DNA of 64,000 nt from Lentisphaerota bacterium (GCA_016873675.1 VGWG01000003.1:3626-67625), one strand, 5' to 3'; numbered from the stretch's first letter, positions 11,456 through 30,202 are shown. Notes: generated from the sequence alone by a model not told the origin. Numbers and translations are program-made.

Positions 11456-12622
11456 TTAATTCCTTTGTCTGCCCGCCGCGAGGATTGCATGATCTTCTGC
11501 CAGCGAGATAAGAGGAAATAGTTCGTTGTACTGCTTCTGGATGAACATCGGGGACTTCCGTCGAAATAGCCGCTCTGCCTGTCGATCTGCGATTCGCAGC
11601 GTAATCTGTTCATGTGCACAAAGGACCGGTGACACCTGGCCCAGAAGTCCGGTTGCCTGTCGATTGAGGCACCCGCAGAAATGATTGCAGCGTTCCCGTA
11701 TGGCGCATGGGAGGCATGCTTCTTTCTCCGTCGTATTTTCCAAATACAGTCTTTGGCGGCGCACTTCATCCACACCGGTTCGTACGTCTCCGATGCACCA
11801 CTCCGAATCCCCGCCGTCGCCCACAAACTGAACACAAGGGAAGATGCGCCCTGACGGCGCGATGGAAATCTGCCTACGCCCAAGTTCGCACCGTTCGTGC
11901 CGACAACTTCCCGGAAAGATGTGTCCGGCAATCTTCACATCAAATGGACTGAAATAGAACTTCTCTTCTCTGAGGGTCTGCGTCTCATACCAATCAGCCA
12001 ATTCGCCGTATTGCCGTTCAAGTTCTTTGAGTGCGCGCCGCGACCATGGTGTGCCATAGTTCAGGGAGCAAATCAGGTACCTGAATCCGCAAGCGAAGAA
12101 AAATCGGACAGATTCAGCGTACCACGACACCGTCTCGGGGGTCGTCACTAACATGACCGGCGCGTACGGTTTATGTGCGAGCAGAAGGTCGATGACCGGG
12201 CGCAGTCTTTCAAAGGTTCCGTTGCCCGACGCATCGATTCGATGAACATCGTGTGCGGCCTGCACCCCATCATGACTAAGCGCCACGAATACACCTGCGG
12301 TCAGGGGATCGGTCAGAAACGTCTTGTCGAGCAGAGCGCCATTTGTCGTTAGTTTGAAATGGAACAACTGGCCGGTCCTTGCTTCGATATCCCGACAGTA
12401 ACATATCGTCTCTCTAACAAGATCAGGACGCAACAACGGCTCGCCACCGAAGAATATAATCCCCAAGCTTTGCCCCTGCGACTGTTGCGCGCTGAGCCGC
12501 AGTGCGAGGTCAACTGCTGCTCGGGCCGTATCGGCCGTCATGGTGCCGCCCAGATGCGGTGCCGCGTAACAATACCGACAACGGAAGTTGCATTCCGACG
12601 TCAGATGGAGTGTGACGTGCAA
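11456..12622 (-). CDS. Radical SAM/SPASM-domain maturase (anaerobic sulfatase-maturating-enzyme-like).
   Basis: CNFRCRYCY (CxxxCxxC) at the N-terminus and C-terminal Cys clusters (CLPCAIRERCNHFCGC) typical of SPASM/twitch. 388 aa. GC is lower than the surroundings. Confidence 0.75.
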   Translation of the reverse strand: MHVTLHLTSECNFRCRYCYAAPHLGGTMTADTARAAVDLALRLSAQQSQGQSLGIIFFGGEPLLRPDLVRETICYCRDIEARTGQLFHFKLTTNGALLDKTFLTDPLTAGVFVALSHDGVQAAHDVHRIDASGNGTFERLRPVIDLLLAHKPYAPVMLVTTPETVSWYAESVRFFFACGFRYLICSLNYGTPWSRRALKELERQYGELADWYETQTLREEKFYFSPFDVKIAGHIFPGSCRHERCELGRRQISIAPSGRIFPCVQFVGDGGDSEWCIGDVRTGVDEVRRQRLYLENTTEKEACLPCAIRERCNHFCGCLNRQATGLLGQVSPVLCAHEQITLRIADRQAERLFRRKSPMFIQKQYNELFPLISLAEDHAILAAGRQRN

Positions 12623-12623
12623 A

Positions 12624-13460
12624 TCAGATGACTCCCTGTCCTTTCAGCCATTTCACAAAATCCTGCACTTGTTCGCGCAGCTCCTTTTCGCCAATGTCCT
12701 TAGCGGCTTTCTGTCTTGCTTCCCAGAAAGAGCGCCGTTCAGTATCGGTTGCCTCTTTCTTTGGATAATCCATATTAGGAGCAGAGGCGGCCGGGTCATA
12801 GAACACGGCCACAATGGTCTTTCCTTTTGTGTGAGTTAATCCATTGGTTAGGACTTGCGCTGTGGTTTTGAAATCGAAACTCGACACCGAGCACATGCGC
12901 GTGTGATCCTTCCTTTCCCAGTCGGCGAAATCCTTCCGGGTTACGACCTGGTAAGCGACGTCGTGCTGTTTGTCGTACCCGTCCAACACAAGGTCACGCT
13001 TTTGCGCGTTCGGCTTCTGTTTTCTCTCTTTCGTATTTTCGTCCCTCTCATCCAAGAACCCGAATTGATCGGTTACCGGAACCATCATATCCTTCAGCGT
13101 GAGCGCGTCTGCGGAAAAATCAATCCCCGCCTTTCTGGCCTCATCCTGGACCACTTGCCGTGCTTCGTCTTCAGAGAGGAATACGGGGGGATTCACGGCG
13201 ACACATCCGAAGCCACCCCGGCCTTCTCCGTGGATGAAAAGTGGCGCGACGCGAGGTGCGTCGACTGCCGCGTTCTTAGAGTCGCCAGCAACGGCCGGTT
13301 TCGATATAATCAGAGGGATGACCATGCTCAACACTCCCAGTACGAGGCGGTGCTGCCGCCAGCGTTCTGGAATCCATTGCAGTAGTTCCGGATGCTCCAT
13401 CAGGTATTGACGTGTCGGATAACATGGAGTTGTATATCGTCGGACTATTCGCATTTTCAT
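12624..13460 (-). CDS. Hypothetical single-TM protein (low-GC island).
   Basis: Start taken at MKMRIV (aaggaaa RBS). The longest ORF runs to 13538. There is one hydrophobic helix (LVLGVLSMVIPLII) and no recognisable domain. GC is about 52% versus about 66% in the flanks. Confidence 0.45.
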   Translation of the reverse strand: MKMRIVRRYTTPCYPTRQYLMEHPELLQWIPERWRQHRLVLGVLSMVIPLIISKPAVAGDSKNAAVDAPRVAPLFIHGEGRGGFGCVAVNPPVFLSEDEARQVVQDEARKAGIDFSADALTLKDMMVPVTDQFGFLDERDENTKERKQKPNAQKRDLVLDGYDKQHDVAYQVVTRKDFADWERKDHTRMCSVSSFDFKTTAQVLTNGLTHTKGKTIVAVFYDPAASAPNMDYPKKEATDTERRSFWEARQKAAKDIGEKELREQVQDFVKWLKGQGVI

Positions 13461-13762
13461 TGTTTTCCTTTCATAGGGCAACTCCTTAAGACGGTTGAGG
13501 GTCTTGCCTCCCGCGCAAAGCTGCGCCGACACAGGCACACATCATTTTCCAACATACGCCCTTTATTGTCTGCGCAGCGACATGCCGCACCCAAAACGAA
13601 TACTGCAAGTATGGCACGTTCCAGCGAACTTGTATAGCCCTCAAAAAATCCGATTCGGCGGTGCACTTGGTTTTACGCATTACACTGGAATCCTAGAAGG
13701 TTTTACGCTATCATCATCTGCGTCTTCGCGTTGCGCCTGTACTGAATGTGCGCCCATTTGCC

Positions 13763-15205
13763 ATGAACCATACCGTCATCGCCTGGCTCATTCCCGGCAC
13801 GGCCGCGCTGCTCGGCGCGGCCGTTCTGGCGGGCTGGCTTGCGTTTGATCCGGCGACCGATCTGGTCGTGCATGTTCCCGGCATGGATGGCGAACCCGTT
13901 CAGGCTGGCCCGACGGCGTCCGGGGCCACGGTTCGCATCGGCGATCACTTCCGGGCTGGCGATGGCACCGCCGCCGATCTCCCCGGTTCGTGGCCGGGAT
14001 TCCGCGGGGCCCGCACTGACAACCGGTGCGCCGATCCGGTGGCGCTGGCCGACCGCTGGGAGACCAACCAGCCGCCGATCCTGTGGCAGGTACAACTGGG
14101 CGAGGGCCACGCTGGCGCGGCCATCCATCGCGGCCGCGTCTATGTGCTGGATTATGACGAGACCGCGCGGCGTGATCTCTTGCGCTGCCTCTCTCTCGCG
14201 GACGGACGTGAACTCTGGCAGCGGGGGTATCCGGTGGAGGTTCCGCGCAACCACGGCTTTTCGCGTACCGTCCCGGCCGTAACCGACCGCCACGTCGTGA
14301 CGCTCGGCCCCCGCTGCCATGTCATGTGCGTGGATGCCGTCACCGGCGACCTGCGGTGGGGGCTGGACCTGGTCGCGACGTTCGGCTCCAAAGTCCCCAT
14401 GTGGCATGCCGGCCAATGTCCGCTGATTGTTGACGACACGGCCATCCTCGCGCCAGCCGGTCCCGAGACGCTGATGATGGGCGTGGATTGCGCGACGGGG
14501 CAGATCCGCTGGAAAACCCCCAACCCGGACGGTCTGGAGATGTCGCACGCCTCGATCATGCCTGCGGTAATCGGCGGCGAGCGCATGGTTGTCTATGCCG
14601 CGCTGGGCGGGATGGTCGGGGTCAGCGTCGAAGCTGGGCGGGAGGGCACGCTGCTGTGGTTTACACGGGACTGGGACCGCTCGGTAATCGCCCCCTCCCC
14701 GGTCATCCTGGAAGACGGCCGAATCTTCGTCACGGCGGGCTACGGCGGCGGCGGCATGATGCTCCAGGTGACGCGCGAGGGCGAGACGTTCCGCGTCGCC
14801 ACGCTGCAGACCTTCAAGGCCAACCAGGGATTCGCCTCGGAGCAGCAAACCCCCGTTCAGATTGACGGACACCTGTTCGGGGTGCTGCCCAACGATGCGG
14901 GGCCGCTGCGCAATCAGCTCGTCTGCGTCAGCCCCGATGACGCGCGAACCTTCGTCTGGACGAGCGGACGCGATCGCCGGTTCGGCCTCGGCCCCTACCT
15001 CGCCGCCGATGGCAAGCTCTACGTGCTCGCCGATGACGGAATGCTCACCATGCTGCGCGCGACGGCCGAGGGCTACCACGAGCTGGGGCGGAAACACATT
15101 CTGACCGGTCACGACGCCTGGGGCCCCCTGGCGCTGGCCGGCGGGTTGCTGGTCTTGCGCGATTCCACCCGCATGGTGTGCGTGGATTTGCGCGGAGGGC
15201 ACTAA
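13763..15205 (+). CDS. Secreted PQQ-like beta-propeller repeat protein.
   Basis: N-terminal signal/TM (MNHTVIAWLIPGTAALLGAAVLAG). It has repeated G-x-V/L-Y...D-G...W motifs of PQQ/BamB-like 8-blade propellers. Confidence 0.7.
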   Translation: MNHTVIAWLIPGTAALLGAAVLAGWLAFDPATDLVVHVPGMDGEPVQAGPTASGATVRIGDHFRAGDGTAADLPGSWPGFRGARTDNRCADPVALADRWETNQPPILWQVQLGEGHAGAAIHRGRVYVLDYDETARRDLLRCLSLADGRELWQRGYPVEVPRNHGFSRTVPAVTDRHVVTLGPRCHVMCVDAVTGDLRWGLDLVATFGSKVPMWHAGQCPLIVDDTAILAPAGPETLMMGVDCATGQIRWKTPNPDGLEMSHASIMPAVIGGERMVVYAALGGMVGVSVEAGREGTLLWFTRDWDRSVIAPSPVILEDGRIFVTAGYGGGGMMLQVTREGETFRVATLQTFKANQGFASEQQTPVQIDGHLFGVLPNDAGPLRNQLVCVSPDDARTFVWTSGRDRRFGLGPYLAADGKLYVLADDGMLTMLRATAEGYHELGRKHILTGHDAWGPLALAGGLLVLRDSTRMVCVDLRGGH

Positions 15206-16191
15206 TGCACAAGGGAACGACGCTTCTTTTTCTGGCTGGCGTACTGGCGTGTGCGGGCATCGTGGCCAAGCGGGGCTGCGCGACAGTCCCGCGGGCTGGT
15301 GACCGGATGATCGAAGCCAAAATATCCGCCTACGACGCACAGATTGCCTCCTTGGCCGTGATCGACCCAGCCCTGATCCTCTACCGTGAGGCCCGTCCGC
15401 TGGTGCCTCCCGGACTCACGGTTCTGCGCGCGATCGCGGTGGGTCCCGACGACCGGATCTATGCCGGCGGCGGGAGCAATCTGGTCGTCCTGTCAGCACA
15501 GGGAGAAACCATCCGGAGCCAAACGTTCGACGGCGACATCTCCTGTCTGGCCGTGGACGCGAAGGGCCGAATGTATGTCGGACTCGGCACTGCCGTTCGC
15601 GCCTTTGACGCGGAGGGCCGCCCGACCGCAACCTTCGCCGGTATCGGATCGGATGCGATCATCACGTCCCTGGCGGCCGCCGACGACGATGTGTTTGTGG
15701 CAGATGCCCGGAGCCTGACCGTGCTGCGCTACGCGCCCGACGGCGTTCTCAAGAACACGATCACCGGTCGGCACGGTCACCCGGAGGAGCGCGGTTTCAT
15801 TGTGCCGAGCCCCAGCTTCGACCTCATGCTCGGTCAGGGGGAAACCCTGTGGATCGTCAATCCCGGCCGACACCGGCTGGAGGACTACGCCTTTACCGGC
15901 GAGCGAATCGCCGTCTGGCCGGAGCGCCCCGGGATGGGAATTGAGAATTTCTCCGGCTGCTGCAACCCGGCCCATGTCGCCCGCCTCGCCGACGGCTCGG
16001 TCGTGACCAGCGAGAAGGGGCTCTCCCGTGTGAAGGTGTACGCGAAGCGCGGCGGCTTCACGGGCGTGGTCGCCGCCCCGGACCACTTCGACAGCGCCGC
16101 CGCAGGCTTGGACCTGACCGTGGATTCCAACGACCGGATTTTGGTGTGTGACACCGACCGCCTGCAGATCCGCGTGTTTGAGCTGAAATAA
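15205..16191 (+). CDS. NHL-repeat / six-bladed beta-propeller lipoprotein.
   Basis: TAATG overlap with the previous gene. Lipobox FLAGVLAC. Repeated …DG.IYVAD/…RI.V.D blades. Confidence 0.6.
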   Translation: MHKGTTLLFLAGVLACAGIVAKRGCATVPRAGDRMIEAKISAYDAQIASLAVIDPALILYREARPLVPPGLTVLRAIAVGPDDRIYAGGGSNLVVLSAQGETIRSQTFDGDISCLAVDAKGRMYVGLGTAVRAFDAEGRPTATFAGIGSDAIITSLAAADDDVFVADARSLTVLRYAPDGVLKNTITGRHGHPEERGFIVPSPSFDLMLGQGETLWIVNPGRHRLEDYAFTGERIAVWPERPGMGIENFSGCCNPAHVARLADGSVVTSEKGLSRVKVYAKRGGFTGVVAAPDHFDSAAAGLDLTVDSNDRILVCDTDRLQIRVFELK

Positions 16192-16203: not shown

Positions 16204-16437
16204 ATGACCACCATCAACGAGACCCGAAGTCGCCGCGAATTCATCCGATTCTGCGGCCGTTTGGCTGTGCTGGGCGGCGCCGCGTACTACGCCTCGCGGC
16301 TGTTCCTCCGCGGCCAAGTTTCTTTGCCCGGACAATCCTGCGAGAACCAGGGGATCTGCTCATCCTGTCGCGCCTACTCCCGCTGCGGCCTGCCGCAGGC
16401 GTTGTCCCGGCGCCGGGCACAGGGGGGCCGCTCATGA
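16204..16437 (+). CDS. Small (77 aa) twin-arginine-signal Cys-rich protein.
   Basis: SRREFIRF followed by a hydrophobic stretch (Tat-like), then CENQGICSSCRAYSRCGLP. There is a strong RBS (aagggggga), and the ATGA overlap couples it to the next gene. Confidence 0.5.
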   Translation: MTTINETRSRREFIRFCGRLAVLGGAAYYASRLFLRGQVSLPGQSCENQGICSSCRAYSRCGLPQALSRRRAQGGRS

Positions 16438-17024
16438 CAACACCCCAAAAAACCGACGCGCTGGCGGCTGGCGTCACCCGCAGACAGTTCATTAAGAACG
16501 GGCTGTGGGGACTGGCCGTGGCCGCCGTCGGCGCCGCCACCGGCCTGTCTGCATCGCGCAGCAGCCGATCATCGCGCGTCTGGCAGATCGATCCCACCCT
16601 GTGCGTGCAGTGCGGCCGATGCGAGACCGCGTGCGTGCTGACGCCGTCAGCCGTCAAGGCGGTTCATGCCTACGCCCTCTGCGGCTATTGCAAGCTGTGC
16701 GGCGGCTACCATCAGCCGCAGGCGCAACGGATTGACACGGCCGCCGAGAACCAGCTCTGCCCGGCGGGCGCGCTTATACGCACGTTCGTCGAGGATCCGT
16801 TCTACGAATACACGATCAACGAGGAGCGCTGCATCGGCTGCGCGGTCTGCGTGAAAGGCTGCAGCCAGTTTGGCAACGGCTCACTCTTCCTGCAAGTGCG
16901 GCACGACCGCTGCGTGAACTGCAACGACTGCGCCATCGCGCGCGCCTGCCCCGCAGGCGCGTTCCGGCGCGTGCCAGCCGACCAACCCTATCTTGTGAAG
17001 GGAGCGCCGGATGCGCACGTTTAA
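16434..17024 (+). CDS. Tat-exported NapG/MauM-like ferredoxin (4x[4Fe-4S]).
   Basis: It has a TRRQFIKNGLWGLAVAAVGAA Tat signal and four Cys clusters: CVQCGRCETAC, CGYCKLCGG...CPAG, CIGCAVCVKGC and CVNCNDCAIARACPAG. Confidence 0.8.
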   Translation: MTTPQKTDALAAGVTRRQFIKNGLWGLAVAAVGAATGLSASRSSRSSRVWQIDPTLCVQCGRCETACVLTPSAVKAVHAYALCGYCKLCGGYHQPQAQRIDTAAENQLCPAGALIRTFVEDPFYEYTINEERCIGCAVCVKGCSQFGNGSLFLQVRHDRCVNCNDCAIARACPAGAFRRVPADQPYLVKGAPDAHV

Positions 17025-18282
17025 AGCTCTGTGGATGGGCGTGGGCGTCTGGGTGACAGCGCTGACGCTCCGGGCGGCGGATCGTTTTCCGCGGCCAGAT
17101 TTCAAAACGGACTATGTGTCGCCCGACCTCCTCCTGCCCGGCGCCAGAGGGCCGCTACTGGAGTGGCTGGACGTCGCGGTTCTGGCTGCGGCTCTGGCGC
17201 TGGCGGGCTGGCTCGCCATCCGGAATCGGTCGCGGCGGGGGTTGGTGCTGCTCACCCTCTTCAGCCTGGGTTATTTCGGCTTCTGGCGACGCGGCTGTGT
17301 CTGCGCCGTCGGCGCCGTGCAAAATCTGGCGCTGGGGTGGGCCGATGCCAGTTGCGCGATTCCGCTGACGGTCATCGCGTTTTTTGTTCTGCCGTTGCTG
17401 GCGACGCTGCTCGTCGGCCGCGTGTTCTGCGCGTCGGTCTGTCCTCTGGGCGCGATCCAGGAACTGGCGTTGTGGCGGCCGATCAAGACGCCCATCTGGC
17501 TGAATCACACGCTTGGCCTTCTGCCCTGGGGGTATCTGAGCGTCGCCGTGCTGTTTGCCGCGACGGGCGCGGGTTTCCTGATTTGCGAATGGGATCCCTT
17601 TGTGGGCTTCTTCCGGCTGGGCGCGCCGTTCCATCTGGCGGTCACGGGCGCGCTGTTTCTTCTGGCGAGCCTGTTCATCGGCCGCCCCTACTGCCGGTTT
17701 GCGTGTCCGTACGGCGCGATCCTTGGGCTACTGTCCCGCGTCTCGCGGCGGCACACGACGATCACCCCGGACGCCTGCGTGCAATGCCGCCTCTGCGAGG
17801 ACGCGTGTCCCTACGGCGCCATCCGCAGTCCGCTGCCCGCCGCCGCGCCCGAGTCGCGCGCGACGGGCGTTCGGCGGCTGGCGCTGATTCTGGCGGCCGT
17901 ACCGCTCATCGCCGTCGCCGCCGCGGCAACGGGATATTTTTTCGGCAATCTGCTGTCGCGGGCGCATCCCCGCGTGGCGCTGGCGCTGGAGATTCATCGG
18001 GATGCGGCGCAGCCCATGAGCCTGGAGCGGGAGGCCTTCTTCACATCGGGCCGTGCGACCGTGGCGCTCGACGCCGAGGCGCGCGCGATTCAGAGGCGAT
18101 TTGCTGTGGGTGGCGTCTTTCTCGGCGCGCTGCTGGCGCTCACGGTTGGGGCTCAACTGATCGGACTGGCGCTCTGGCGGTCGCGAACCGACTACGAGCC
18201 GGACCGGGCGCGCTGCTTCAGTTGCGGCCGTTGCTTCGCGTATTGCCCGGTCGGTAGAAAGCGAAAGGAGTCGCCGAAATGA
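17011..18282 (+). CDS. NapH/MauN/NosR-family membrane polyferredoxin.
   Basis: Several TM helices with CxxC motifs, C-terminal CRFACPYGA and CVQCRLCEDACPYGA (2x[4Fe-4S]), and an additional CFSCGRCFAYCP motif. Confidence 0.8.
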   Translation: MRTFKALWMGVGVWVTALTLRAADRFPRPDFKTDYVSPDLLLPGARGPLLEWLDVAVLAAALALAGWLAIRNRSRRGLVLLTLFSLGYFGFWRRGCVCAVGAVQNLALGWADASCAIPLTVIAFFVLPLLATLLVGRVFCASVCPLGAIQELALWRPIKTPIWLNHTLGLLPWGYLSVAVLFAATGAGFLICEWDPFVGFFRLGAPFHLAVTGALFLLASLFIGRPYCRFACPYGAILGLLSRVSRRHTTITPDACVQCRLCEDACPYGAIRSPLPAAAPESRATGVRRLALILAAVPLIAVAAAATGYFFGNLLSRAHPRVALALEIHRDAAQPMSLEREAFFTSGRATVALDAEARAIQRRFAVGGVFLGALLALTVGAQLIGLALWRSRTDYEPDRARCFSCGRCFAYCPVGRKRKESPK

Positions 18283-20015
18283 CGCCCCCACTTTCTCCAG
18301 CGGAATCGCTGCGCGTGGTCATCGGCCGCCGGCTGGCGGCGGTCTCCGCCGTGTTCATCATCATCGTTTCGCTGTTGATGGCGACGAACCGGTATCTGCT
18401 CAATACCATTGATCCGCTCGATACGCCCGCGCTGAAGACGTTATCCGAAAAGCTGGAGCGGGATGGGGAGAATGCCGAGCTCCGGCAACAGGTGCGCGAA
18501 TTGGACTGGCTGGCCCGCCGGGCGTTCTTCGTGCGACAATGGCAGCTTGAGACCGGCGCCAGCCTGCTGGGCGTTGCGGGTGTCGTGTTCCTGTTGTCAT
18601 TACAGCTCATGGCATCGGGACGCCGCCCCACCCCCACCCCGCAACCCGCTTCCGGCAGGGATAATCGCTTTTGGCGGTCCGCCGCGCGCGCCCGGCGGGT
18701 CATCGCGATTAGCGGGGCGCTGATCCTGCTGGCGGCCTGGGGGCTACACCTCCGGATCGGTGGACAGTCACGGACACCCAATCCCATGCCGACGGCACCG
18801 CAGCCGGGACACTCTCCCGCGACGAATCCCCCCCTCGCTCCTGAAACCCTGATCGAACCGCTCGCAGGCGCTGGCGAGTGGCCCTTCTTCCGCGGACCCG
18901 GCGGCCTGGGCATCGCTCGCGAGGCCGATCCCCCCATCGCCTGGGACGGCGCAACCGGCACCGGCGTACTCTGGAAAACGGAGGTGCCGCGGGGCGGATT
19001 CAACTCGCCCGTGGTGTGGGGCAACCGCGTTTACCTGGCTGGCGCCGATGAACAGACGCGCGAAGTGTACGGGTACGACGCCGACACCGGCGTTCGGTTG
19101 TGGACGGCCGACACCGAGGGCGTCCCCGGAGCACCCGCCACGCCGCCAGAGGTCACCTCGGACACCGGTTATGCCGCGCCGTCGCTGGCCACTGACGGCC
19201 GGCGGGTGATTGCGATCTTCGGCACGGGCGTCATCCTTGGCCTCGACGCCGAGGGCCGCCGCCTCTGGGCGCGCCATCTGGGCACGCCCGGCAATCCCTA
19301 CGGACACGCCTCATCCCTGCTGATTCTGCGCAATCTGGTCTTCGTCCAATTCGACCATACCGGCGGCTCATCGGTCAAGGCGCTGGATGTGGAGACTGGA
19401 CAGGACCGCTGGGAACAGTCGCGGGAGGGCGCGATCTCCTGGGCGTCGCCCATCCTCACGGACGCGGACGGACGCCTGCGGCTGATCCTCTCGGCGGCGC
19501 CGATGGTGGCCGCCTATGACGCCCTGACAGGGGCTGAACTCTGGATGCAGGATGTGCTTAGCAACGAGATCGGCGCGTCTCCCGCCTATGCGAACGGCCG
19601 CGTGTTCGCCGCCAACCGGTACGCCCAGGCCGTCGCGCTCGACGTCGCCTCGGGCGACGTGATCTGGTCGTCCACCGATCTGGATTTGCCCGACGCCGGA
19701 AGCCCCGTCGCCGACGGCAACCACCTCTTCATGCCCACGAGCGACGGGACGTTTTCCTGCATCGCTGCGGCGGATGGTTCGCGGATCTGGCGCCACGAGT
19801 TTGACACGGGCGGCTACGGCTCGCCAATCCTCGCCGCAGGCCGCATCTACTGGATCACCGCCGATGGTCGGACGCGCATCTTCAAGGCCGCCGAAACCTT
19901 TGAATTGATCGCTGAACCGGACCTCGGAGAAGCCAGTGTCTGCACCCCGGCCGCCGTCGGTCGCCGCCTCTATATCCGGGGCGTCAAACACCTGTTCTGC
20001 ATCGGACCGAAATGA
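18279..20015 (+). CDS. Membrane-anchored PQQ-like beta-propeller repeat protein.
   Basis: N-terminal TM (VSAVFIIIVSLLMA) and a Pro-rich linker, followed by PQQ/BamB-like repeats (VYGYDADTGVRLW, VKALDVETGQDRW, ...). Confidence 0.7.
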   Translation: MTPPLSPAESLRVVIGRRLAAVSAVFIIIVSLLMATNRYLLNTIDPLDTPALKTLSEKLERDGENAELRQQVRELDWLARRAFFVRQWQLETGASLLGVAGVVFLLSLQLMASGRRPTPTPQPASGRDNRFWRSAARARRVIAISGALILLAAWGLHLRIGGQSRTPNPMPTAPQPGHSPATNPPLAPETLIEPLAGAGEWPFFRGPGGLGIAREADPPIAWDGATGTGVLWKTEVPRGGFNSPVVWGNRVYLAGADEQTREVYGYDADTGVRLWTADTEGVPGAPATPPEVTSDTGYAAPSLATDGRRVIAIFGTGVILGLDAEGRRLWARHLGTPGNPYGHASSLLILRNLVFVQFDHTGGSSVKALDVETGQDRWEQSREGAISWASPILTDADGRLRLILSAAPMVAAYDALTGAELWMQDVLSNEIGASPAYANGRVFAANRYAQAVALDVASGDVIWSSTDLDLPDAGSPVADGNHLFMPTSDGTFSCIAAADGSRIWRHEFDTGGYGSPILAAGRIYWITADGRTRIFKAAETFELIAEPDLGEASVCTPAAVGRRLYIRGVKHLFCIGPK

Positions 20016-20037: not shown

Positions 20038-22446
20038 GTGAGCACCCCGAATATCCAACTGGCTGATCCGGTCCGCGCCGAAGATCTCGACCGAATCCTC
20101 GACGAAACCGGACGCAACAGCGCGGCGGTCATTGCTGTGCTGCAGGGGATTCAGGCGCGGTATCGCTATCTGCCCGAGGCGGCCCTGCGCTACGTCTGCG
20201 ACCATTCCGAAATCACGCCGGCCGCCATCGTCGGCGTCTCGACCTTCTACACGCAGTTTCGACACACGCCCGCAGGCAGGCACACAGTCAGCGTCTGCGT
20301 GGGAACGGCCTGCCACGTCAAGGGTGCCAGTGGCATTCTGGCGGCGCTGCGTCGCCATTTGAAGCTCGCCGATGGTGCCGACACCGACGCCGACCGCCGC
20401 TTCACCCTGCGCGAGGTCAATTGCCTCGGTTGCTGCACGCTGGCCCCTGTGGTGCAGGTGGACAGCGTGATCTATGGCTACGCGACTCCCGAGACCGTGG
20501 GCAACATCCTGCAGGATTTTCTCAACCGGGGAGGCGGACAGGACTCGCGCGGCGCCTCCTCCGATCCGTCGCCAGGTCCGTCAGTCGGCGACATCCGCGT
20601 CGGCATGGGCTCCTGTTGCGTGGCCAGCGGCGCTTCGGAGATCGAAGCCGCGCTACATGACCGCGTGTCGGCGCTGCGCCTCCCCGTGCGCATTCAGCGG
20701 GTCGGCTGTCTCGGCCTCTGCTACGAGGAGCCGGTGATCGAAGTGGCGGCGCACGGGCGCCCGTCGCGCCTGTACACGCGGGTGAAGCCGGAAGATATCC
20801 CCGCGATCTTAACCGCGCATTTTCCCCCGCCCAGCCGCTGGACCCGTCTCCGTCACGCCGCCGGACACTGGGTCGAACAGCTCTACACCGACGCGGCTTG
20901 GACGGGCGCGCATTGCGCTGGCATGGACGCGCGCGACCCCCAGATCGCGCCCTATCTCGACCCTCAAGTGCCGATCGCCACCGAGGGCTGCGGCCAGCTC
21001 GATCCGCTCAGTCTCTCCGATTATTGCGGCGCGCACGGGTTCGAAGGATTCCAAGCGGCGCTGCGGCTGCGCCCTGAGGACGTGGTGCGCCAGATCGCCG
21101 ACAGCGGCCTGCGCGGCCGGGGTGGCGGCGGCTATCCGACCGGCCGCAAATGGGGCGAGGTCGCGCGCGAGGTGAACGACGTCAAGTATGTGGTCTGCAA
21201 TGGCGACGAGGGCGACCCGGGCGCGTTCATGGACCGCATGCTACTCGAATCGTTTCCCTACCGCATAATCGAGGGGATGCTGATCGCCGGATACGCAGTC
21301 GGAGCGACACAGGGCGTGCTCTACATCCGCGCCGAATATCCGCTGGCGATCCGGCGCGTCAGCGCGGCACTCGACGCCTGCCGCGCCGCCGGCTGGCTGG
21401 GACCCCACATCCTCGGCAGCGACTTTTCATTCGAACTCACGATCATGACGGGGGCAGGCGCGTTCGTCTGCGGCGAAGAGACCGCACTTATCGCCTCGAT
21501 TGAGGGCAAGCGCGGCATGCCCCGCATGCGGCCGCCCTATCCGTCTCAATGCGGTCTGCACGGCCGCCCCACGCTGGTGAACAACACCGAGACCTTCGCC
21601 CTGATTTCGTGGATCCTGCGCCACGGGCCCGCCGCATTCGCCGCCATCGGCTCCGCGCGCAGCAGAGGCACCAAGGTATTTGCGCTGGCCGGCAAGGTGC
21701 GGCGGGGAGGCCTGATCGAAGTACCCATGGGGATGACGATCCGCCGGGTGATCGACGACATCGGCGGCGGCATCGCCGACGGGCGCCGCCTGAAGGCGGT
21801 GCAGATTGGCGGGCCTTCCGGCGGATGTATTCCCGAACGGCTTGCCGATACGCCCATCGACTACGAGGCGCTGGTCGAGGCGGGCGCCATGATGGGCTCG
21901 GGCGGGCTGGTGGCGCTCGATGACGCAGATTGCATGGTGGAGATCGCCCGCTTCTTTCTCGCCTTCACCCAGCATGAGTCGTGCGGGAAATGCACCTTCT
22001 GCAGGATCGGCACCACCCGCATGCTGGACATACTCGAACGGCTGTGCGGCGGCACGGGCAAACCCTCCGATCTCGATGAGCTCGAGCGTTTGGCGTCCGT
22101 GGTCAAACGCGGCAGCCTCTGCGGTCTGGGAAAGTCCGCGCCTAACCCGGTGCTCACCACGCTGCGCTATTTTCGGGAAGAATACGAGGCGCACGCCGGA
22201 GGCGTATGCCCGGCGGGCCAATGCAAGGCACTGATCTCCTACCAGATCACCGACGACTGCATCGGCTGCACCCGCTGCGCGCAACAGTGTCCGGTCGGCG
22301 CCATCCCGCCGACCCCGTATGAACGGCACGCGATCAACCCCGAAACATGCGTGCGCTGCGACGGCTGCAGGACGGCCTGCCCGGCCGGGGCCGTCGTGGT
22401 GATGTCCGGAAACAGGATTGTGAAACATGGTTACGCTAAACATTGA
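20038..22446 (+). CDS. Fused NuoE-like [2Fe-2S] + NuoF-like (FMN, NADH-binding, [4Fe-4S]) flavoprotein with C-terminal 2x[4Fe-4S] ferredoxin. It is of the HydB/HoxF/FdhB type.
   Basis: It carries CVGTACHVKGA…CLGCC (NuoE), GRGGGGYPTGRKWG, CNGDEGDPGAF and ESCGKCTFCRIGT (NuoF). The C-terminus has CIGCTRCAQQCP and CVRCDGCRTACP. A GTG start at 20038 avoids overlap; the track ORF begins at 19936. Confidence 0.85.
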   Translation: MSTPNIQLADPVRAEDLDRILDETGRNSAAVIAVLQGIQARYRYLPEAALRYVCDHSEITPAAIVGVSTFYTQFRHTPAGRHTVSVCVGTACHVKGASGILAALRRHLKLADGADTDADRRFTLREVNCLGCCTLAPVVQVDSVIYGYATPETVGNILQDFLNRGGGQDSRGASSDPSPGPSVGDIRVGMGSCCVASGASEIEAALHDRVSALRLPVRIQRVGCLGLCYEEPVIEVAAHGRPSRLYTRVKPEDIPAILTAHFPPPSRWTRLRHAAGHWVEQLYTDAAWTGAHCAGMDARDPQIAPYLDPQVPIATEGCGQLDPLSLSDYCGAHGFEGFQAALRLRPEDVVRQIADSGLRGRGGGGYPTGRKWGEVAREVNDVKYVVCNGDEGDPGAFMDRMLLESFPYRIIEGMLIAGYAVGATQGVLYIRAEYPLAIRRVSAALDACRAAGWLGPHILGSDFSFELTIMTGAGAFVCGEETALIASIEGKRGMPRMRPPYPSQCGLHGRPTLVNNTETFALISWILRHGPAAFAAIGSARSRGTKVFALAGKVRRGGLIEVPMGMTIRRVIDDIGGGIADGRRLKAVQIGGPSGGCIPERLADTPIDYEALVEAGAMMGSGGLVALDDADCMVEIARFFLAFTQHESCGKCTFCRIGTTRMLDILERLCGGTGKPSDLDELERLASVVKRGSLCGLGKSAPNPVLTTLRYFREEYEAHAGGVCPAGQCKALISYQITDDCIGCTRCAQQCPVGAIPPTPYERHAINPETCVRCDGCRTACPAGAVVVMSGNRIVKHGYAKH

Positions 22447-23992
22447 CCGGCGCCCGGTGGACGTGCCTGCTGGAACAACCCTGCTGGTCGCGGCCCGCAG
22501 GCTCGGCATCGCCATCCCAACGCTCTGCTTTCGCGATGGCCTGGAGCACGTCACCTCCTGCATGCTCTGCGTGGTCGAGGACGTCCGGACGGGTTGCCTG
22601 CATCCCGCGTGCTCCACCCCGGTTCAGGACGGCATGGACATCGCGACCGCCAGCGGGACGGTACTGGAGGCGCGCCGCACGGCTCTGGAACTGCTGCTGG
22701 GGGATCATCTCGGCGATTGCGAAGGCCCCTGCGCGCGCGCCTGTGCGGCGGGTATGAACATCCCCGCCATGCTGCGCGCGATCCGCGACGGCGATTTGCG
22801 CGAGGCGATTCGCGTCGTCAAGCGGCACATCGCGCTCCCCGCAGCGCTGGGACGGATCTGCCCGGCGCCCTGCGAAAAGGCGTGCCGCCGCGGCACGCAC
22901 GACGCGCCGGTCGCAATCTGCAGGCTCAAGCGTTTCGTGGCCGACGCCGACCTCGCCTCGCCGGACCCGTATCTTCCCGAGCGCCTGGAATCGAGCGGCT
23001 TCCGGGTGGCCGTGGTCGGCGCCGGCCCGGCCGGGCTCTCCGCCGCCTGCGCGCTCGCGCGCGACGGACACGCATGCACCGTGTTTGAAAAAGGCGACAG
23101 GCCCGGCGGAGGCTTGCGCGCGCCGGAGCTGAGTGACACACTGCCGTCGGCCGTGCTCAACGCCGAAATCGCGCAAATCGCCCGCCTCGGCATGACCTTT
23201 GAGACCGGCGTGGAGATCGGCGTCACCTGCTCGCTTCACGACCTCAAACAGCGTTTTGACGCAATCATTCTGGCGTGGGGTGCCAGCGCATCCAGCCTCC
23301 TGGACCCCCTCGGACTCGAAAGTGGTCCGCACGGGATCACAGCAAACTGGAGAACCCACCGCACCGGCGACCCCGTGATCTTTGCGTGCGGCAACGCGGT
23401 GGTGCCTGGCCGACTGGCCGTGCGGGCGGTTGCGCAGGGACAGGCCGCCGCCCTCGCGGTCGGCCAGATGCTGCGCGGCGAGGCGGTCGTCGGAACGCGG
23501 CACCGCTACAATCACCGGCTCAGCGCTGCCCTGACGCCGGACGAGCTCGCGGCTTTCATGACCGGAACTGCGCCGGGGCCACGCACGGAGCCTGCGGATC
23601 ACGCGACGGGCGGCTACTCAACGGACGAGGCACCCGGAGAGGCGGCGCGGTGCCTCCACTGCGATTGCCGCAAACCCGAGGCCTGCCAATTGCGCCGCTA
23701 TGCCGACGACTACGGGGTGAATCCGCGCGGCTGGAAACCGGCCCATCGGCGTCCGGTCGAGATCGTGCGACACGGCAACACCGTCTACGAACCGGGAAAA
23801 TGCATCGCCTGCGGCATCTGCGTGCGCATCGCCAACGCCGCCCGGGAACCGCTGGGCCTAACCTTCATTGGCCGAGGCTTTACCGTGCGGATCGGGGTTC
23901 CCTTCCATGAGTCATTGGAGAAGGGATTGAGCCAAGTCGCCGCCGCCTGCGTTGAAGCCTGCCCCACCGGCGCGCTGGCCCATGACCGGTGA
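22427..23992 (+). CDS. [2Fe-2S] ferredoxin domain fused to a GltD-like NAD(P)H-dependent FAD oxidoreductase (glutamate synthase small-subunit family).
   Basis: The N-terminus has a NuoG-like 2Fe-2S (CFRDGLEHVTSCMLCVV). CPAPCEKACRRG is GltD Fe-S motif. VAVVGAGPAGLSAACALA is a Rossmann FAD/NAD motif. There is a C-terminal Cys cluster. Confidence 0.8.
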   Translation: MVTLNIDRRPVDVPAGTTLLVAARRLGIAIPTLCFRDGLEHVTSCMLCVVEDVRTGCLHPACSTPVQDGMDIATASGTVLEARRTALELLLGDHLGDCEGPCARACAAGMNIPAMLRAIRDGDLREAIRVVKRHIALPAALGRICPAPCEKACRRGTHDAPVAICRLKRFVADADLASPDPYLPERLESSGFRVAVVGAGPAGLSAACALARDGHACTVFEKGDRPGGGLRAPELSDTLPSAVLNAEIAQIARLGMTFETGVEIGVTCSLHDLKQRFDAIILAWGASASSLLDPLGLESGPHGITANWRTHRTGDPVIFACGNAVVPGRLAVRAVAQGQAAALAVGQMLRGEAVVGTRHRYNHRLSAALTPDELAAFMTGTAPGPRTEPADHATGGYSTDEAPGEAARCLHCDCRKPEACQLRRYADDYGVNPRGWKPAHRRPVEIVRHGNTVYEPGKCIACGICVRIANAAREPLGLTFIGRGFTVRIGVPFHESLEKGLSQVAAACVEACPTGALAHDR

Positions 23993-24348
23993 GTCAGGGC
24001 GGCCACATGGCCGTGTTGCGTTTCGCAAGCAATCCAACCAGCAGGAAGAGTCTAATCACCACTGGCCCCAGGGCAAAACGATCACGCTGGCCGAGCCTAT
24101 TCCTTCACCAGGCTAGTGGCTGCCGGTGGAGGGATCCTCTAACGGAGCTTCCGGTTCTGGAGGCGATGGGCAATGTCAAGACACGGTAATGGGGCGGTCG
24201 TTCTTGCTTGACGCATCCTTTCCGGTTCTGCTAACGTCTCACTTCCAAACGTGCGCTTTCAGCCCGGTTCACAGCGGGCGCGTGATCACGCCGTATGAGA
24301 AGCGATTGCGTATCACGGAGTGGACCACGGAATAAACGGAGAGAAGCC

Positions 24349-26872: not shown

Positions 26873-29800
26873 TCACTGCGGCGCGGTGCGCGCGGCGCGC
26901 GCGCCAAAACGGCCGGTGCGGTCACAGTCAATACGATTAAACTTACCGAGCACCTCGTACATCTGCTCCGGCTGGACCCAGATCCCGATAATGGACGGTC
27001 CCTGCCACTGCCCCATGGAGACGCTGTCGCCCATGGCCGACCAGGGCCAGTCGTCCGGCACCGTGGCGATCCCCTTTCCATGGGTTCCCGCAAACGCCTT
27101 GGCGGGACCGCCATAACTCCGAATCAAAGCGGGCCATTCCTGCACACAGCCACTCAGGCTCAGATCCGGAATGCCCCAGTAGGAGGCGCCATAGTTCCCG
27201 AACGTCTTCGCCAGGCTGGGATCGGTCCCGAGCCCGACCGCAGGGCCGCATACCGCGCCCGTCCAGGCATCCGCTTCTCGCGCCACCGCCCGTGGCCCGC
27301 GACACGCCTTTTCATATTCCAGGCACGTCGGCGGACGCAACCCCGCCCAGGCCGTATAGGAAATGATATCAGGCCAGGACAGAAAGTTGCAGGGACGTTC
27401 CGGTTGCTTCGCGACAAACACCCCGTCCTCCGTGCGCGTAATGGTGTAGCCGTTGATGTCGGTGAGGTCGAGTCCGTAGCGCCAGACGTTCCCATTGCAC
27501 AGCGCGGTGTACCGTCCATGGTTATAGGCATAGGGCTTCTCACCGGGATTCGCGGTATTGAGCAGCGCCACGTACTGTCCCTGGCTGATCGGGTTCTTCA
27601 TGACGTAAAAGGCGCGGTAGCCATTCGGCCACGTCGCCCTCTCCGGCGCGCTGTTGGTCGCGCCCAAATACCCGCCCTCCCGTGTGGCGTCCGCCGTGTT
27701 GATCAGCGTCAACGGCCCACCAAAAACGCTTTTTGACTGGAACGGCCCTTCTGGCACGTAAACCATCTCGACGGCATAAACCTCGGGCTTGATCGTGGCG
27801 GGATCGGTGACGCCATCGGCAGTGTGTAACCAACGAACGGCAATGTTCTTGAACGCATTCGCCCCCCGTCCGACGGTTTTCCGAGAGATGAAAACCCCCA
27901 TGCCGCGCGCGCCATCGTCACTCGCGCCGACTTGCAGGGCGGCATCCGCCGGAACCGCGTGGTGCGTGGCATCCGTGTCGAGCGTGGCGTGCGAGAACGC
28001 GCTCGCCCCAGGGGGCAGGAACTTGACGAAAACCCAGGCGGCGTCCCAGCTTTCGATTTTGAGCGGCTTCCCCGTCACGTTTTTGTCGGCCGGCTCCTCC
28101 CATGCCGCGCGCCAGGAGTTGTCCCATGCGAGGTCGAACGTGATCGTGCGGAAGGGCTCCGCACCGGCCGTCACTTTGATATTCGTAACCTTGACGGAAT
28201 CCGCATGCGTAACCGCGACAGGCGCCGCTGTCGCAACGGGGCCTGGCTTCGGCGAGCCCCCGCCGCCGGAACGACGCCGCGGGCCGGACGGACCCACCAG
28301 GCGAATGGCGTTGCGCGCGTGTCGAGTGCCGCCCATGTGTTCGCCCCCAATCCAGGTCCGTTCCGAGATCAGAGCCCCCCTCATTCCCGTATGCGTTGGC
28401 TCACCCCACTCTTTCGGAGCCGTTTCAAAGGCGGGGGCGTTTTTGATTCGTTTCGGCGGGGCACCGGGCTTGCCGGCCGGCGTTCGGCCGTCACCCGGCG
28501 TACCGCGAAACGCACGCCCCGCGAGACTGCCGATCCGAAAGGCTTGTATTTCCGCGAAGTCCGGGAGTCCCCAATAAGTCGCACCGGCAGATTGCCGGTC
28601 ACTGTCGGCGGTCAGCATATTCCCCACGCGGGTTGCTTGGCCTTCGTCCAGAATCAGCCCGCCATCATACCGTTCGGTAGGCATGCCGAGATCGAGCACT
28701 TTGTTGCCCTTCTTCCATTTTTTGGTGAGGGCCTTGTTGTCGCTCACCTCACCCCAGGTCAATTCCCGGACCACGGCGCGGGCCGGGCCGCGACACGCCT
28801 TTTCGAACTCCAGCTCCGTCATCGGCCGCAACCCCGCCCAAACCGCGTACGAGAAGTAGTCTGCCGTGGAGAGATAACTGCAGCGGCGGAACGGCAGACG
28901 GGCGGTGTACACCGGCGGCTTGACATACTTCGAACGGGGATCCGCCATCGCATCGGCTAGAAACGCATGATCACCGTCCATCGTCTCGGACGCGTCCGGC
29001 TTCCCGGCCATGGTCTCCAACTTCGGAGCGGTGGCCGGCGCTTCCGCCGAAGAATGGATCGTGAATCCATCCAGTTCCCGCACAACAAAAGACGAGTGAC
29101 CGGCGATCCCTGGCATCGTGATCTCTTCCATGTCGCCCATACCGCCCTCGGGGTCCCAGCTGTCGCCGCTGATGAAGGCGCGGGTGGCGGCGACATCGGG
29201 CGGAAGCGAATTCAGAAAATCGGCGTACTGACCCTGTGTCGTCGGGTATTTCATACAATAGAAACCCTCGTAGCCGGTTGGATATTCGTCGTTCAGCGTG
29301 CCGGGCGTTCCGATGGACGTGCCGCCGGCCATTCGTTCCGCGTAAGTAAGTGTGCCCCAGAGTTGGCCGGCGACCGGGCCCAATCGCCGCGCGCGGGTTC
29401 CGTCGGCCACAGGTTTGTTCCACTCGGCATCGACCAAGAACGGAATCGTCGGGCCTCCGCGCCATGCGCCATCGGTCAGATTTCCGAGCGGATATCCATC
29501 AGCCGATTTAGCAACGGGCACTGTTGGTCCGTCCGTAAATGGAGGAAAGCCCGGATCGGCGCCGCATCCGACTCGGAACGGCCCTTCGGGCACATAGATC
29601 ATCGCCACCACATGCGCCTTGATCGCGGCCTGGGTCGGGTCCACTTTGTCGGTTCCGTGCAACCACCGCAGTTTTACACCCTTGAAGTTGTTCGCGCCAT
29701 GCCCGATCGCAGCGCGGTGAATATAGACCCCGAGTCCGCGGTCCCCCCCGATCGTCACGCCGACGGTGTTGGTCGCCCCGGCGGGCATCACGTGATGTGA

Positions 29801-30202
29801 GCCATCGGTGTCAAGAGACGCATGTTGCCAGTGGTTCCGTTCGATGCTCTCCTTGGAATCCTTATTGGGCAGGAACTTCAGAAACACCCAGGCGGCATCC
29901 CAGTTCTCGACTTCGATATCCTTGCCCGTGCAACTCGTTGCGGCTGGCTCGACCCACTTTGCCCGCCAGGACCATGACCACGACAGGTCAAACGTCACAT
30001 AACTGTAGTCCTTCGTCGCGGCCTCCCATTTCACGTTCGTGACCGCCAGGTCATAGGTCGGCGCGCCCTTGAACCGAGCGGCGGCATCGTCGTCGGCCGC
30101 GAGGCACGATGCGCCCAGCCACAACACCAACCCCGTCGTCAGTCTCACTACCCCGCGTGCGATTGGACTCCTGCCCCCCGTTGGATCATTCATCTCTCTC
30201 AT
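26873..30202 (-). CDS. Secreted two-module protein. Each module has an N-terminal Trp-rich beta-rich region plus an FGE/SUMF1-like domain.
   Basis: Signal peptide. Module 1 has TFDLSWSWSWR…ENWDAAWVFLKF and AVWAGLRPMTELEFEKACRGP. Module 2 has TFDLAWDNSWR…ESWDAAWVFVKF and TAWAGLRPPTCLEYEKACRGP. Confidence 0.7.
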   Translation of the reverse strand: MREMNDPTGGRSPIARGVVRLTTGLVLWLGASCLAADDDAAARFKGAPTYDLAVTNVKWEAATKDYSYVTFDLSWSWSWRAKWVEPAATSCTGKDIEVENWDAAWVFLKFLPNKDSKESIERNHWQHASLDTDGSHHVMPAGATNTVGVTIGGDRGLGVYIHRAAIGHGANNFKGVKLRWLHGTDKVDPTQAAIKAHVVAMIYVPEGPFRVGCGADPGFPPFTDGPTVPVAKSADGYPLGNLTDGAWRGGPTIPFLVDAEWNKPVADGTRARRLGPVAGQLWGTLTYAERMAGGTSIGTPGTLNDEYPTGYEGFYCMKYPTTQGQYADFLNSLPPDVAATRAFISGDSWDPEGGMGDMEEITMPGIAGHSSFVVRELDGFTIHSSAEAPATAPKLETMAGKPDASETMDGDHAFLADAMADPRSKYVKPPVYTARLPFRRCSYLSTADYFSYAVWAGLRPMTELEFEKACRGPARAVVRELTWGEVSDNKALTKKWKKGNKVLDLGMPTERYDGGLILDEGQATRVGNMLTADSDRQSAGATYWGLPDFAEIQAFRIGSLAGRAFRGTPGDGRTPAGKPGAPPKRIKNAPAFETAPKEWGEPTHTGMRGALISERTWIGGEHMGGTRHARNAIRLVGPSGPRRRSGGGGSPKPGPVATAAPVAVTHADSVKVTNIKVTAGAEPFRTITFDLAWDNSWRAAWEEPADKNVTGKPLKIESWDAAWVFVKFLPPGASAFSHATLDTDATHHAVPADAALQVGASDDGARGMGVFISRKTVGRGANAFKNIAVRWLHTADGVTDPATIKPEVYAVEMVYVPEGPFQSKSVFGGPLTLINTADATREGGYLGATNSAPERATWPNGYRAFYVMKNPISQGQYVALLNTANPGEKPYAYNHGRYTALCNGNVWRYGLDLTDINGYTITRTEDGVFVAKQPERPCNFLSWPDIISYTAWAGLRPPTCLEYEKACRGPRAVAREADAWTGAVCGPAVGLGTDPSLAKTFGNYGASYWGIPDLSLSGCVQEWPALIRSYGGPAKAFAGTHGKGIATVPDDWPWSAMGDSVSMGQWQGPSIIGIWVQPEQMYEVLGKFNRIDCDRTGRFGARAARTAPQ

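Follow-up and report, generated by a model that had tools for sequence, protein, structure and literature searches.

A NuoEF–GltD pair lacking the NADPH subdomain closes a conserved seven-gene cassette with NapGH-like and β-propeller genes

What does the NADH- and ferredoxin-handling head of a bifurcating enzyme do in an operon that contains no hydrogenase and no formate dehydrogenase? The question is raised by two overlapping genes at positions 20038-23992 of a 64,000-nucleotide stretch of DNA from a Lentisphaerota bacterium (GCA_016873675.1, VGWG01000003.1:3626-67625), the whole of which we refer to as the window. The first encodes a NuoE–NuoF fusion (NuoEF; open reading frame (ORF) 1, 20038-22446), the second a 2Fe-2S/GltD-like protein (short GltD, or short BfuA; ORF 2, 22427-23992); both lie on the plus strand. 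A reading made from the sequence alone had described the pair as the electron-handling half of a bifurcating enzyme and, seeing only NapGH-like proteins and β-propellers as partners, had proposed a new enzyme architecture. We find that the short GltD has lost its NAD(P)H-binding subdomain throughout its family, and that the pair closes a seven-gene cassette whose order is conserved in ten phyla. With moderate confidence, we propose that the seven genes encode an envelope redox system in which NuoEF and the short GltD are the cytoplasmic head, docked on a NapH-like membrane protein and feeding a NapG-like polyferredoxin and the propellers.

ORF 1 encodes a predicted BfuC–BfuB core

ORF 1 encodes 802 residues from a GTG codon (the longest ORF opens at 19936). 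Four regions follow one another along its plus strand: a NuoE-type thioredoxin-like [2Fe-2S] domain (nucleotides 20089-20517; PF01257, E 5e-49), a second thioredoxin-like 2Fe-2S region, B5, marked by a cluster of cysteines (about 20590-20823), the NuoF domain for FMN and NADH with cluster B1 (21004-22194; PF01512, PF10589; TIGR01959, 450 bits), and a C-terminal ferredoxin domain with two [4Fe-4S] clusters, B3 and B4 (22234-22407; Pfam/NCBIfam domain scan). No transmembrane segment is present.

A search of PDB sequences returned the NfnB subunit of Thermococcus sibiricus as the best match (9n5u_B, E 2.6e-205, 687 bits), followed by Caldicellulosiruptor saccharolyticus NfnB (9bov_B, 681 bits), S. 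ovata StnB (8oh5_B, 653 bits), NiFe- and FeFe-HydB (610-566 bits), FdsB (415 bits) and, at about 350 bits, Nqo1/NuoF of complex I. In a neighbor-joining tree of the NuoF portion, the cassette copies form one clade, apart from the HydB and NfnB proteins of Firmicutes and Synergistetes.

To compare cluster ligands, seven cassette NuoEF sequences were aligned with genuine HydC+HydB and NfnC+NfnB pairs from the retrieved loci. Every cysteine ligand column common to those pairs is found in NuoEF. The [2Fe-2S] cluster C1 of the BfuC part (C87, C92, C129, C133) lies in a domain fused to the N-terminus of BfuB, and the B1 ligands (C649, C652, C655, C695) align with those of HydB and NfnB. The cysteines of B3/B4 (741/744/747/751 and 771/774/777/781), of B5 (193-194/224/228) and of the Zn-type site B2 (724/729; metal predicted) are kept in all seven cassette sequences. 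By its B2-B5 sites, bifurcating BfuB can be told from NuoF homologs that do not bifurcate (Schut et al. 2022, PMC9304861), and FMN-B1-C1 has been defined from the NfnABC structure as the minimal bifurcation site (PMC11829005). Because all shared cysteine columns and the B2-B5 sites are present, ORF 1 is, as judged from its predicted ligands, a complete BfuC–BfuB core in a single polypeptide and not a complex I subunit. As regards complex I NuoEFG, NuoEF carries extra N- and C-terminal cluster domains, and the window contains no nuo genes. The sequence-only reading had placed NuoF with HydB and away from complex I, and had suggested looking for bifurcation-associated features; the bit scores agree with the placement, and the B2, B3/B4 and B5 columns supply the features. 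Its domain identities for both proteins agree likewise with the Pfam and NCBIfam matches.

The short GltD has lost the NADPH subdomain

In Stn/NfnABC, catalysis on the third substrate falls to the GltD-like domain, with NADPH bound between two Rossmann folds beside the FAD (PMC10482914). Because the GltD domain of Stn is itself catalytic, a NuoEF–GltD pair without a hydrogenase is a known architecture. The earlier case for a new architecture was sound as to the partners and the novelty, but a lacking hydrogenase or formate dehydrogenase is not anomalous on its own. The real anomaly is the loss of the NADPH subdomain. The sequence-only reading had named the 2Fe-2S-GltD protein correctly but overlooked that both the NAD(P)H Rossmann subdomain and the FdhF-like domain are gone.

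The 521-residue protein consists, along the plus strand, of a Fer2_4 [2Fe-2S] domain (PF13510, nucleotides 22427-22654), a two-[4Fe-4S] domain of the type found in GltD, DPD and NfnB (PF14691 Fer4_20, 22718-22951), an FAD-type Rossmann fold (23003-23476) containing the deletion junction at about 23294-23341, and a NuoG-type ferredoxin domain (PF22117) with CxxCxCx5C and CxxCxxC...CP clusters (23651-23977). It has no transmembrane segment. Its nearest PDB sequences are Csac NfnA (9bov_A, E 8e-93), StnC (8oh5_C, E 1e-85) and Tsib NfnA (9n5u_A, E 6e-74). HMMER aligns the protein to these chains in two pieces, residues 2-295 with chain residues 4-296 and residues about 300-517 with chain residues about 445-671, so that residues about 297-445 of 9bov_A and about 291-451 of 8oh5_C remain unmatched. 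What is missing can be seen when the protein is aligned with long forms from loci of Synergistetes, Deltaproteobacteria and Gammaproteobacteria: a gap of about 150 residues takes the place of the second Rossmann fold, which bears the GGGNTAMD-type motif. The AlphaFold2 model of the short GltD (predicted local distance difference test score (pLDDT) 87) matched 9bov_A, 8oh5_C and 9n5u_A in Foldseek with query-normalized template-modeling scores of 0.85-0.89, in alignments of 681-704 columns for 521 residues. The FdhF-like C-terminal domain is also absent, the protein ending at residue 521, right after the NuoG-type ferredoxin domain. The FdhF-like domain anchors NfnC in NfnABC (PMC11829005), and the fusion of BfuC to BfuB may make up for its loss.

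The iron–sulfur ligands have been pruned selectively. The fourth cysteine of the first ferredoxin motif and the first two cysteines of the second motif are missing, and one of the two [4Fe-4S] clusters of the ferredoxin domain is therefore lost, probably the equivalent of the off-pathway cluster C2 of StnC. The retained motifs, for two GltD [4Fe-4S] clusters, one CxxCxCx5C [4Fe-4S] cluster, the [2Fe-2S] cluster and one NuoG-type [4Fe-4S] cluster, would suffice for the whole iron–sulfur wire from FAD to FMN. In Stn the electrons follow the path FAD-C7-C6-C5-C4-C3-B1-FMN, while C1/C2 and the FdhF domain form an off-pathway remnant for tetramer assembly (PMC10482914); the clusters retained in the short GltD fit this linear path.

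The window protein is identical to one from a Lentisphaerae metagenome-assembled genome (MAG). Conservation was counted in the 120 best homologs and in an alignment of 35 sequences. All of the 120 are short (517-563 residues) and lack both the NADPH subdomain and the FdhF-like domain. The GxGxxG motif, the acidic residue that ends β-strand 2 (D/E221) and the G227-G228 pair are each present in 120/120. Among the six ligand columns examined, C465, C508 and C512 occur in 120/120 and C165 in 108/120, and every ligand cysteine of the retained clusters is invariant in the 35-sequence alignment. Flavin binding by the short GltD is likely. Since the ligands of the retained clusters and the GxGxxG...D/E signature are conserved, the orphan flavin/iron–sulfur end appears to be under selection. 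By descent, the short GltD would be a large subunit of the Stn/NfnABC type that has lost its NADPH domain.

Two trivial explanations were discarded. A pseudogene or an assembly artefact is ruled out, as the best 120 homologs are equally short with invariant ligands. Provision of the NADPH domain in trans by the genes that separate NuoEF from the short GltD at four loci (L009, L013, L014 and L020) was rejected, because these inserts differ from locus to locus and none looks like a GltD-type domain; judged from their sequences alone, without a domain search, they look SGNH-hydrolase-like, NAD-dependent-epimerase-like and tryptophanase-like.

The pair closes a conserved seven-gene cassette

Neither the window nor the related loci supply a catalytic partner. 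When all other large ORFs of the 64-kb window were scanned with Pfam, none proved to encode a [FeFe]-hydrogenase, a NiFe or molybdopterin protein or a catalytic nap, nos or mau product, and no H-cluster motif turned up in a scan of the six frames. Nor did phmmer detect an H-cluster or an FdhF-like/FdhA-type gene within ±10 kb of about 27 syntenic loci. The earlier statement that no hydA or fdhA stands beside the operon thus holds for the window and for these loci alike.

The short GltD pair is instead the end of a cassette of seven plus-strand genes in the order PQQa, NHL, NapG-like, NapH-like, PQQb, NuoEF and short GltD. The first five encode a PQQ-type propeller with an N-terminal membrane anchor (PQQa, 13748-15205; PF13360 PQQ_2, E 2e-17), a six-bladed NHL β-propeller, also with an N-terminal anchor (15178-16191; PF01436), a NapG-like polyferredoxin with a twin-arginine translocation (TAT) signal and four [4Fe-4S] cysteine motifs (16434-17024; TIGR01409), a NapH-like integral membrane iron–sulfur protein (17011-18282; PF12801 Fer4_5, E 2e-17) and PQQb, a BamB-like eight-blade propeller that follows three transmembrane helices (18279-20015; PF13360, E 8e-38). 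From the NapG-like gene through the short GltD gene, adjacent ORFs overlap or lie at most 22 nucleotides apart; the NapH-like stop and the PQQb start share a 4-nucleotide overlap. The short GltD gene is followed by a 300-nucleotide gap with a drop in GC content and then by a GH31 gene. A weak terminator-like hairpin on the plus strand (23999-24014; 6-pair stem, T-rich tail) lies just 3' of the short GltD gene and is the probable end of the operon, although the number of terminator-like sites in the window does not exceed shuffle expectation. A promoter scan detected no promoter.

Synteny was assessed by searching the ORFs of 49 loci, retrieved by similarity to the short GltD, with the seven window proteins. 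All seven genes occur in identical order and strand in about 20 loci, that is, wherever the flank is long enough. Starting from the short GltD, cassette loci were found in Planctomycetota/Phycisphaerae, Verrucomicrobiota, Latescibacterota, Firestonebacteria and Hydrogenedentales, in Prolixibacteraceae, Lentimicrobiaceae and Bacteroidales of the Bacteroidota, and in Fimbriimonadaceae and Chthonomonadales of the Armatimonadota. Retrieval with PQQa added Calditrichia and another MAG, as well as a Gemmatimonadetes contig that holds the start of the cassette only and ends within the NapH-like gene. With Calditrichota, Gemmatimonadota, Hydrogenedentota and the Lentisphaerota of the window, the conserved order extends over ten phyla, across which the cassette proteins are about 50% identical. 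The genes flanking the cassette are unrelated between loci, and a few loci carry unrelated inserts between NuoEF and the short GltD. The partners named in the sequence-only reading are therefore confirmed, and their order is kept over many phyla.

Several variants were seen. NuoE and NuoF are two ORFs, split or frameshifted, at one locus (L007, 1588-3949), and in a Planctomycetota PLA4 contig (L026, 4723-7650) PQQb is absent and a longer NuoEF ORF directly follows the NapH-like gene. Two contigs titled as 'Akkermansia sp.' and 'Akkermansia muciniphila' MAGs (L005, 1260-11563; L006, 955-11593) hold a cassette copy with a short GltD 89% identical to the Lentisphaerae-type protein of the window; they are probably mis-binned or mislabelled.

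A further module recurs beside the cassette (L002, 11586-20957; L008, 11490-20948; L053, from 20431; L003, 8669-16924). It comprises a PQQ-like protein of about 390 residues, a GT4 glycosyltransferase, an ABC_tran protein with an FtsX permease of about 1100 residues, and two more PQQ_2 propellers; the short GltD gene of Kiritimatiellia is located inside this GT4/ABC/FtsX module. The recurrence of the glycosyltransferase/FtsX module may point to a connection with the chemistry of envelope glycans.

Membrane and periplasmic partners

The NapG-like protein has a TAT signal (TIGR01409, 18.9 bits; cut-off 16.7) and only weak matches to the MauM/NapG and NapG models (napG, 22 bits versus a cut-off of 179), and its [4Fe-4S] cysteine motifs are kept in 16 orthologs. 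The NapH-like protein has at least six transmembrane segments, two CX3CP motifs and two CxxCxxCxxxCP motifs, all kept in 17 orthologs; the second CxxCxxCxxxCP motif lies beyond two extra transmembrane helices. It scores 56 bits against TIGR02163 napH, where the cut-off is 213, and comparison with solved structures gave nothing useful for function. By analogy and from their motifs, the NapG-like and NapH-like proteins would work like NapGH while standing outside the equivalog.

PQQa is the most conserved protein of the cassette, with more than 50% identity across phyla still at rank 120. It has a single N-terminal hydrophobic segment (residues 10-28), and its invariant residues include H169, C224 (in GQCP), M265, S266, H267, E365, R471 and D472. 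PQQb has transmembrane segments at residues 19-37, 96-114 and 142-160, and in the PDB it matched only BamB (E 7e-11). The AlphaFold2 model of the NHL protein (pLDDT 90) matches only generic NHL folds such as TRIM2 and Brat in Foldseek, and all of its homologs are annotated as hypothetical. In 38 sequences it contains, within residues 258-266, an invariant F-x-G-C-C-N-P motif (C261, C262, N263, P264) and a near-invariant H266. A redox-relevant vicinal cysteine pair is known from quinoprotein methanol dehydrogenase, and the unusual vicinal pair of the NHL protein could mark a metal or redox site. Overall, the conservation pattern of the propellers appears closer to that of active or metal-binding sites than to that of scaffolds, and the conserved Cys, His and Met residues suggest a periplasmic redox reaction.

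Proposed electron path

In the envelope redox system that we favor, NADH would be oxidized at the FMN of the Bfu-derived head. Its interaction with ferredoxin has probably been preserved, since it retains all the bifurcation-associated sites as well as the C-terminal two-[4Fe-4S] domain, to which ferredoxin binds in HydABC, Stn and NfnABC. The conserved cluster wire would exchange electrons between the FMN and the orphan flavin at the GltD end, and the port formed by this flavin and its iron–sulfur clusters would most likely dock on the cytoplasmic [4Fe-4S] clusters of the NapH-like protein: with the nicotinamide pocket gone from the GltD end, these are the only conserved candidate acceptor or donor. 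Electrons from NADH, possibly confurcated with those of reduced ferredoxin, would then move via the NapH-like protein to the TAT-exported NapG-like protein and from there to the membrane-anchored periplasmic propellers PQQa, NHL and PQQb. The predicted locations fit, with no transmembrane segment in NuoEF or the short GltD, a TAT signal on the NapG-like protein, at least six transmembrane segments in the NapH-like protein and N-terminal anchors on the propellers. Bifurcation or confurcation and docking on the polyferredoxin, both raised by the sequence-only reading, are plausible. The sequences themselves establish which domains and ligands are present, which domains have been deleted, the signals for cellular location and the synteny of the cassette across phyla; the docking, the direction of electron flow (export or import), the occupancy of the flavin site by FAD, the use of ferredoxin with or without bifurcation, and the periplasmic substrate are inferred.

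Several observations weigh against this proposal. The contact between the short GltD and the NapH-like protein is itself a deduction, and how NapH-type proteins transfer electrons across the membrane is unsettled. At the flavin end, the 'GD' motif varies at its aspartate (D 23, N 44, A 21, G 18 and S 13 of 120 homologs), which makes FAD occupancy or chemistry uncertain. PQQa as a single sequence has no match in the PDB, and its profile only marginally matches BamB and quinoprotein alcohol dehydrogenase; for PQQb, the closest relatives of known structure are scaffolds of the BamB kind, not redox enzymes. The linkage of the genes also has exceptions: in Kiritimatiellia the short GltD gene lacks an adjacent NuoEF gene and stands beside a glycosyltransferase, a PQQ-like protein and an ABC/FtsX pair, locus L009 has no NapGH upstream, and a Cloacimonetes contig (L051, 4666-10645) carries PQQa alone among GT4, GT2 and methyltransferase genes. 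Finally, Chthonomonadales and Fimbriimonadaceae, which carry the cassette, are usually deemed aerobic, where ferredoxin-dependent confurcation is less expected.

Alternative explanations

The alternative that survives best, although we consider it rather unlikely, is a non-bifurcating NADH:quinone oxidoreductase, in which the orphan FAD end passes electrons to quinone at or within the NapH-like protein and the NapG-like protein and propellers form a separate, quinol-oxidizing branch as in NapGH. With the NADPH domain gone, the exposed flavin could serve as a two-electron/one-electron converter toward quinone, the CX3CP motifs are conserved in the NapH-like protein, and the presence of the cassette in aerobic lineages would suit such an enzyme. 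The NapH proteins of the E. coli and Wolinella NapGH systems are considered to interact with quinol. NapH is regarded as a quinol-interacting subunit in general (PMC8238504). A plain NADH dehydrogenase, however, needs neither the ferredoxin-binding C-terminal domain nor B5 nor the Zn-site cysteines, all of which are strictly kept here, and non-bifurcating NuoF homologs lack B2-B5 (PMC9304861); any quinone-binding motif in the cassette would be hypothetical.

We regard it as unlikely that NuoEF and the short GltD work in the cytoplasm as a soluble enzyme with no functional tie to the upstream genes, either an NADH:ferredoxin oxidoreductase or an enzyme that reduces a small molecule at the exposed flavin, much like the polysulfide or Fe(III) reductases of the Sud/Sfr type, with the gene order reflecting co-regulation only. 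Both proteins lack transmembrane segments, Kiritimatiellia parts the short GltD from NuoEF and NapGH, and SudA and SfrB are relatives from the GltD family that reduce non-nicotinamide acceptors. Co-regulation alone would have to account for a seven-gene order kept in more than eight phyla despite unrelated flanks and occasional inserts, and for the overlap or close spacing (at most 22 nucleotides) of the NapH-like, PQQb, NuoEF and short GltD genes. Retrieval that started from PQQa, at the opposite end of the cassette, recovered the NuoEF/short GltD pair at two of four loci, a third contig ending within the NapH-like gene.

There is only a slim chance that a gene elsewhere in the genome encodes the catalytic subunit of a hydrogenase or formate dehydrogenase for which the pair serves as diaphorase half. 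Bfu enzymes of types 2 and 3 do rely on separate catalytic subunits (PMC9304861), and for this genome our search covered the 64-kb window. Yet no such gene was found there or within ±10 kb of the roughly 27 loci. In HydA-type subunits the route toward the catalytic site passes through the second cluster of the ferredoxin-like domain, and the short BfuA is without this cluster. Last, an ordinary NADH-dependent ferredoxin:NADP+ transhydrogenase of the Stn/NfnABC type, for which the best sequence and fold matches (StnBC and Bfu-type NfnAB) would speak, is effectively excluded, because a protein that has lost the GGGNTAMD-bearing NADPH Rossmann subdomain family-wide cannot be such an enzyme; the FdhF-like tetramerization domain is missing too.

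A bolder extension of the envelope redox proposal is possible but doubtful. The cassette might encode the first flavin-based confurcating enzyme of the Bfu type with a transmembrane polyferredoxin, not a soluble molecule, as its 'third substrate', in which NADH and reduced ferredoxin together export low-potential electrons via the NapH/NapG-like pair to new periplasmic metallo-β-propeller reductases, with the His/Cys/Met/His set of PQQa and the CCNPxH motif of the NHL protein as their sites, widespread in the PVC and FCB groups, Armatimonadota and related phyla.

Comparison with known systems

The closest characterized relatives are StnABC of Sporomusa ovata (8oh5/8oh9) and NfnABC (Nfn-Bfu) of C. 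saccharolyticus (9bov) and T. sibiricus (9n5u), with E values of 1e-195 to 1e-205 for the NuoF part and 6e-74 to 8e-93 for the GltD part. The cassette proteins share with them the BfuBC cofactor set, an FAD-to-FMN chain of the same kinds of cluster, and the insertion of GltD between the N-terminal [2Fe-2S] cluster and the NuoG-type clusters. Unlike Stn/NfnABC, they lack the NAD(P)H Rossmann subdomain, the FdhF-like domain and the off-pathway cluster branch, BfuC is fused to BfuB, and the flavin 'GD' aspartate is not conserved; whereas Stn/NfnABC is a stand-alone three-gene operon, the cassette adds membrane and periplasmic partners. With HydABC (7q4v, 8a6t, 7p5h) the cassette shares the HydB/HydC-type core with all its cysteine columns and the N-terminal [2Fe-2S] cluster of HydA, but no H-cluster domain occurs in the window or the syntenic loci.

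A BfuABC head on a membrane complex has been predicted, as a concept, for Nuo-Bfu and Mbh-Bfu (Schut et al. 2022, PMC9304861). Those forms use proton-pumping arms of the complex-I or Mbh type, the only kinds of membrane arm predicted for the family, in which 17 BfuB clades have no assigned function (PMC9304861); the cassette in contrast uses a NapH/NapG-like pair and propellers. Neither the text nor the supplement of that survey mentions the cassette arrangement, and its supplement does not list these phyla except in the Nuo-Bfu clade. A paper on Bfu enzymes of Hydrogenedentota mentions none of the cassette partners, and literature searches found no description of the cassette or of a BfuA without the NADPH domain.

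The membrane part resembles NapGH, NosGH and MauMN in its NapH-type protein with CX3CP and [4Fe-4S] motifs, its TAT-exported four-cluster ferredoxin and its periplasmic clients, some of which in the known systems are propellers (NosZ, NirS, ExaA, MADH). A comparative study describes NapH-like proteins as modular electron links that span the membrane and serve extracytosolic oxidoreductases, the propellers NirS and ExaA among them (PMC8238504). The cassette differs from these systems in scores far below the equivalog cut-offs, in two extra C-terminal transmembrane helices, in the absence of an FMN-binding domain and of nap, nos or mau catalytic genes, and in an NADH-type head that takes the place of the quinol pool or acts besides it.

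Other features of the window

Three long minus-strand ORFs overlap cassette genes (13703-15340, 21427-22617 and 22436-23602; 545, 396 and 388 residues). They were rejected as artefacts of the high GC content (67%), their composition being rich in Arg, Ala and Gly. Downstream of the cassette, the minus strand encodes proteins of 1109 residues (26873-30202) and 1521 residues (31890-36455), each with an FGE-sulfatase domain (PF03781); the former is apparently duplicated internally, containing the motif WDAAWVF(L/V)KFLP twice. Upstream, a B12-binding radical SAM gene (5912-7405) and a second radical SAM gene (11459-12643) are interleaved with ORFs without a Pfam match in a minus-strand region (5912-12643) that could be a peptide- or metabolite-modification cluster. 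The GC content falls to 0.55 at 12-14 kb.

Implications

Anaerobes have in the Bfu enzymes a major means of balancing the pools of NADH, ferredoxin and a third substrate. To our knowledge, every characterized member ends in a soluble catalytic site, for H2, formate, NADPH or aldehyde. The short-BfuA branch has dropped the catalytic site and kept the whole wire under apparent selection, in synteny with a membrane iron–sulfur conduit and highly conserved propellers. It is thus a candidate for a new means by which reducing power from the cytoplasm reaches the periplasm, encoded by a seven-gene cassette that occurs in environmentally abundant, polysaccharide-degrading phyla, and it offers a possible function for some of the unassigned members of the Bfu family.

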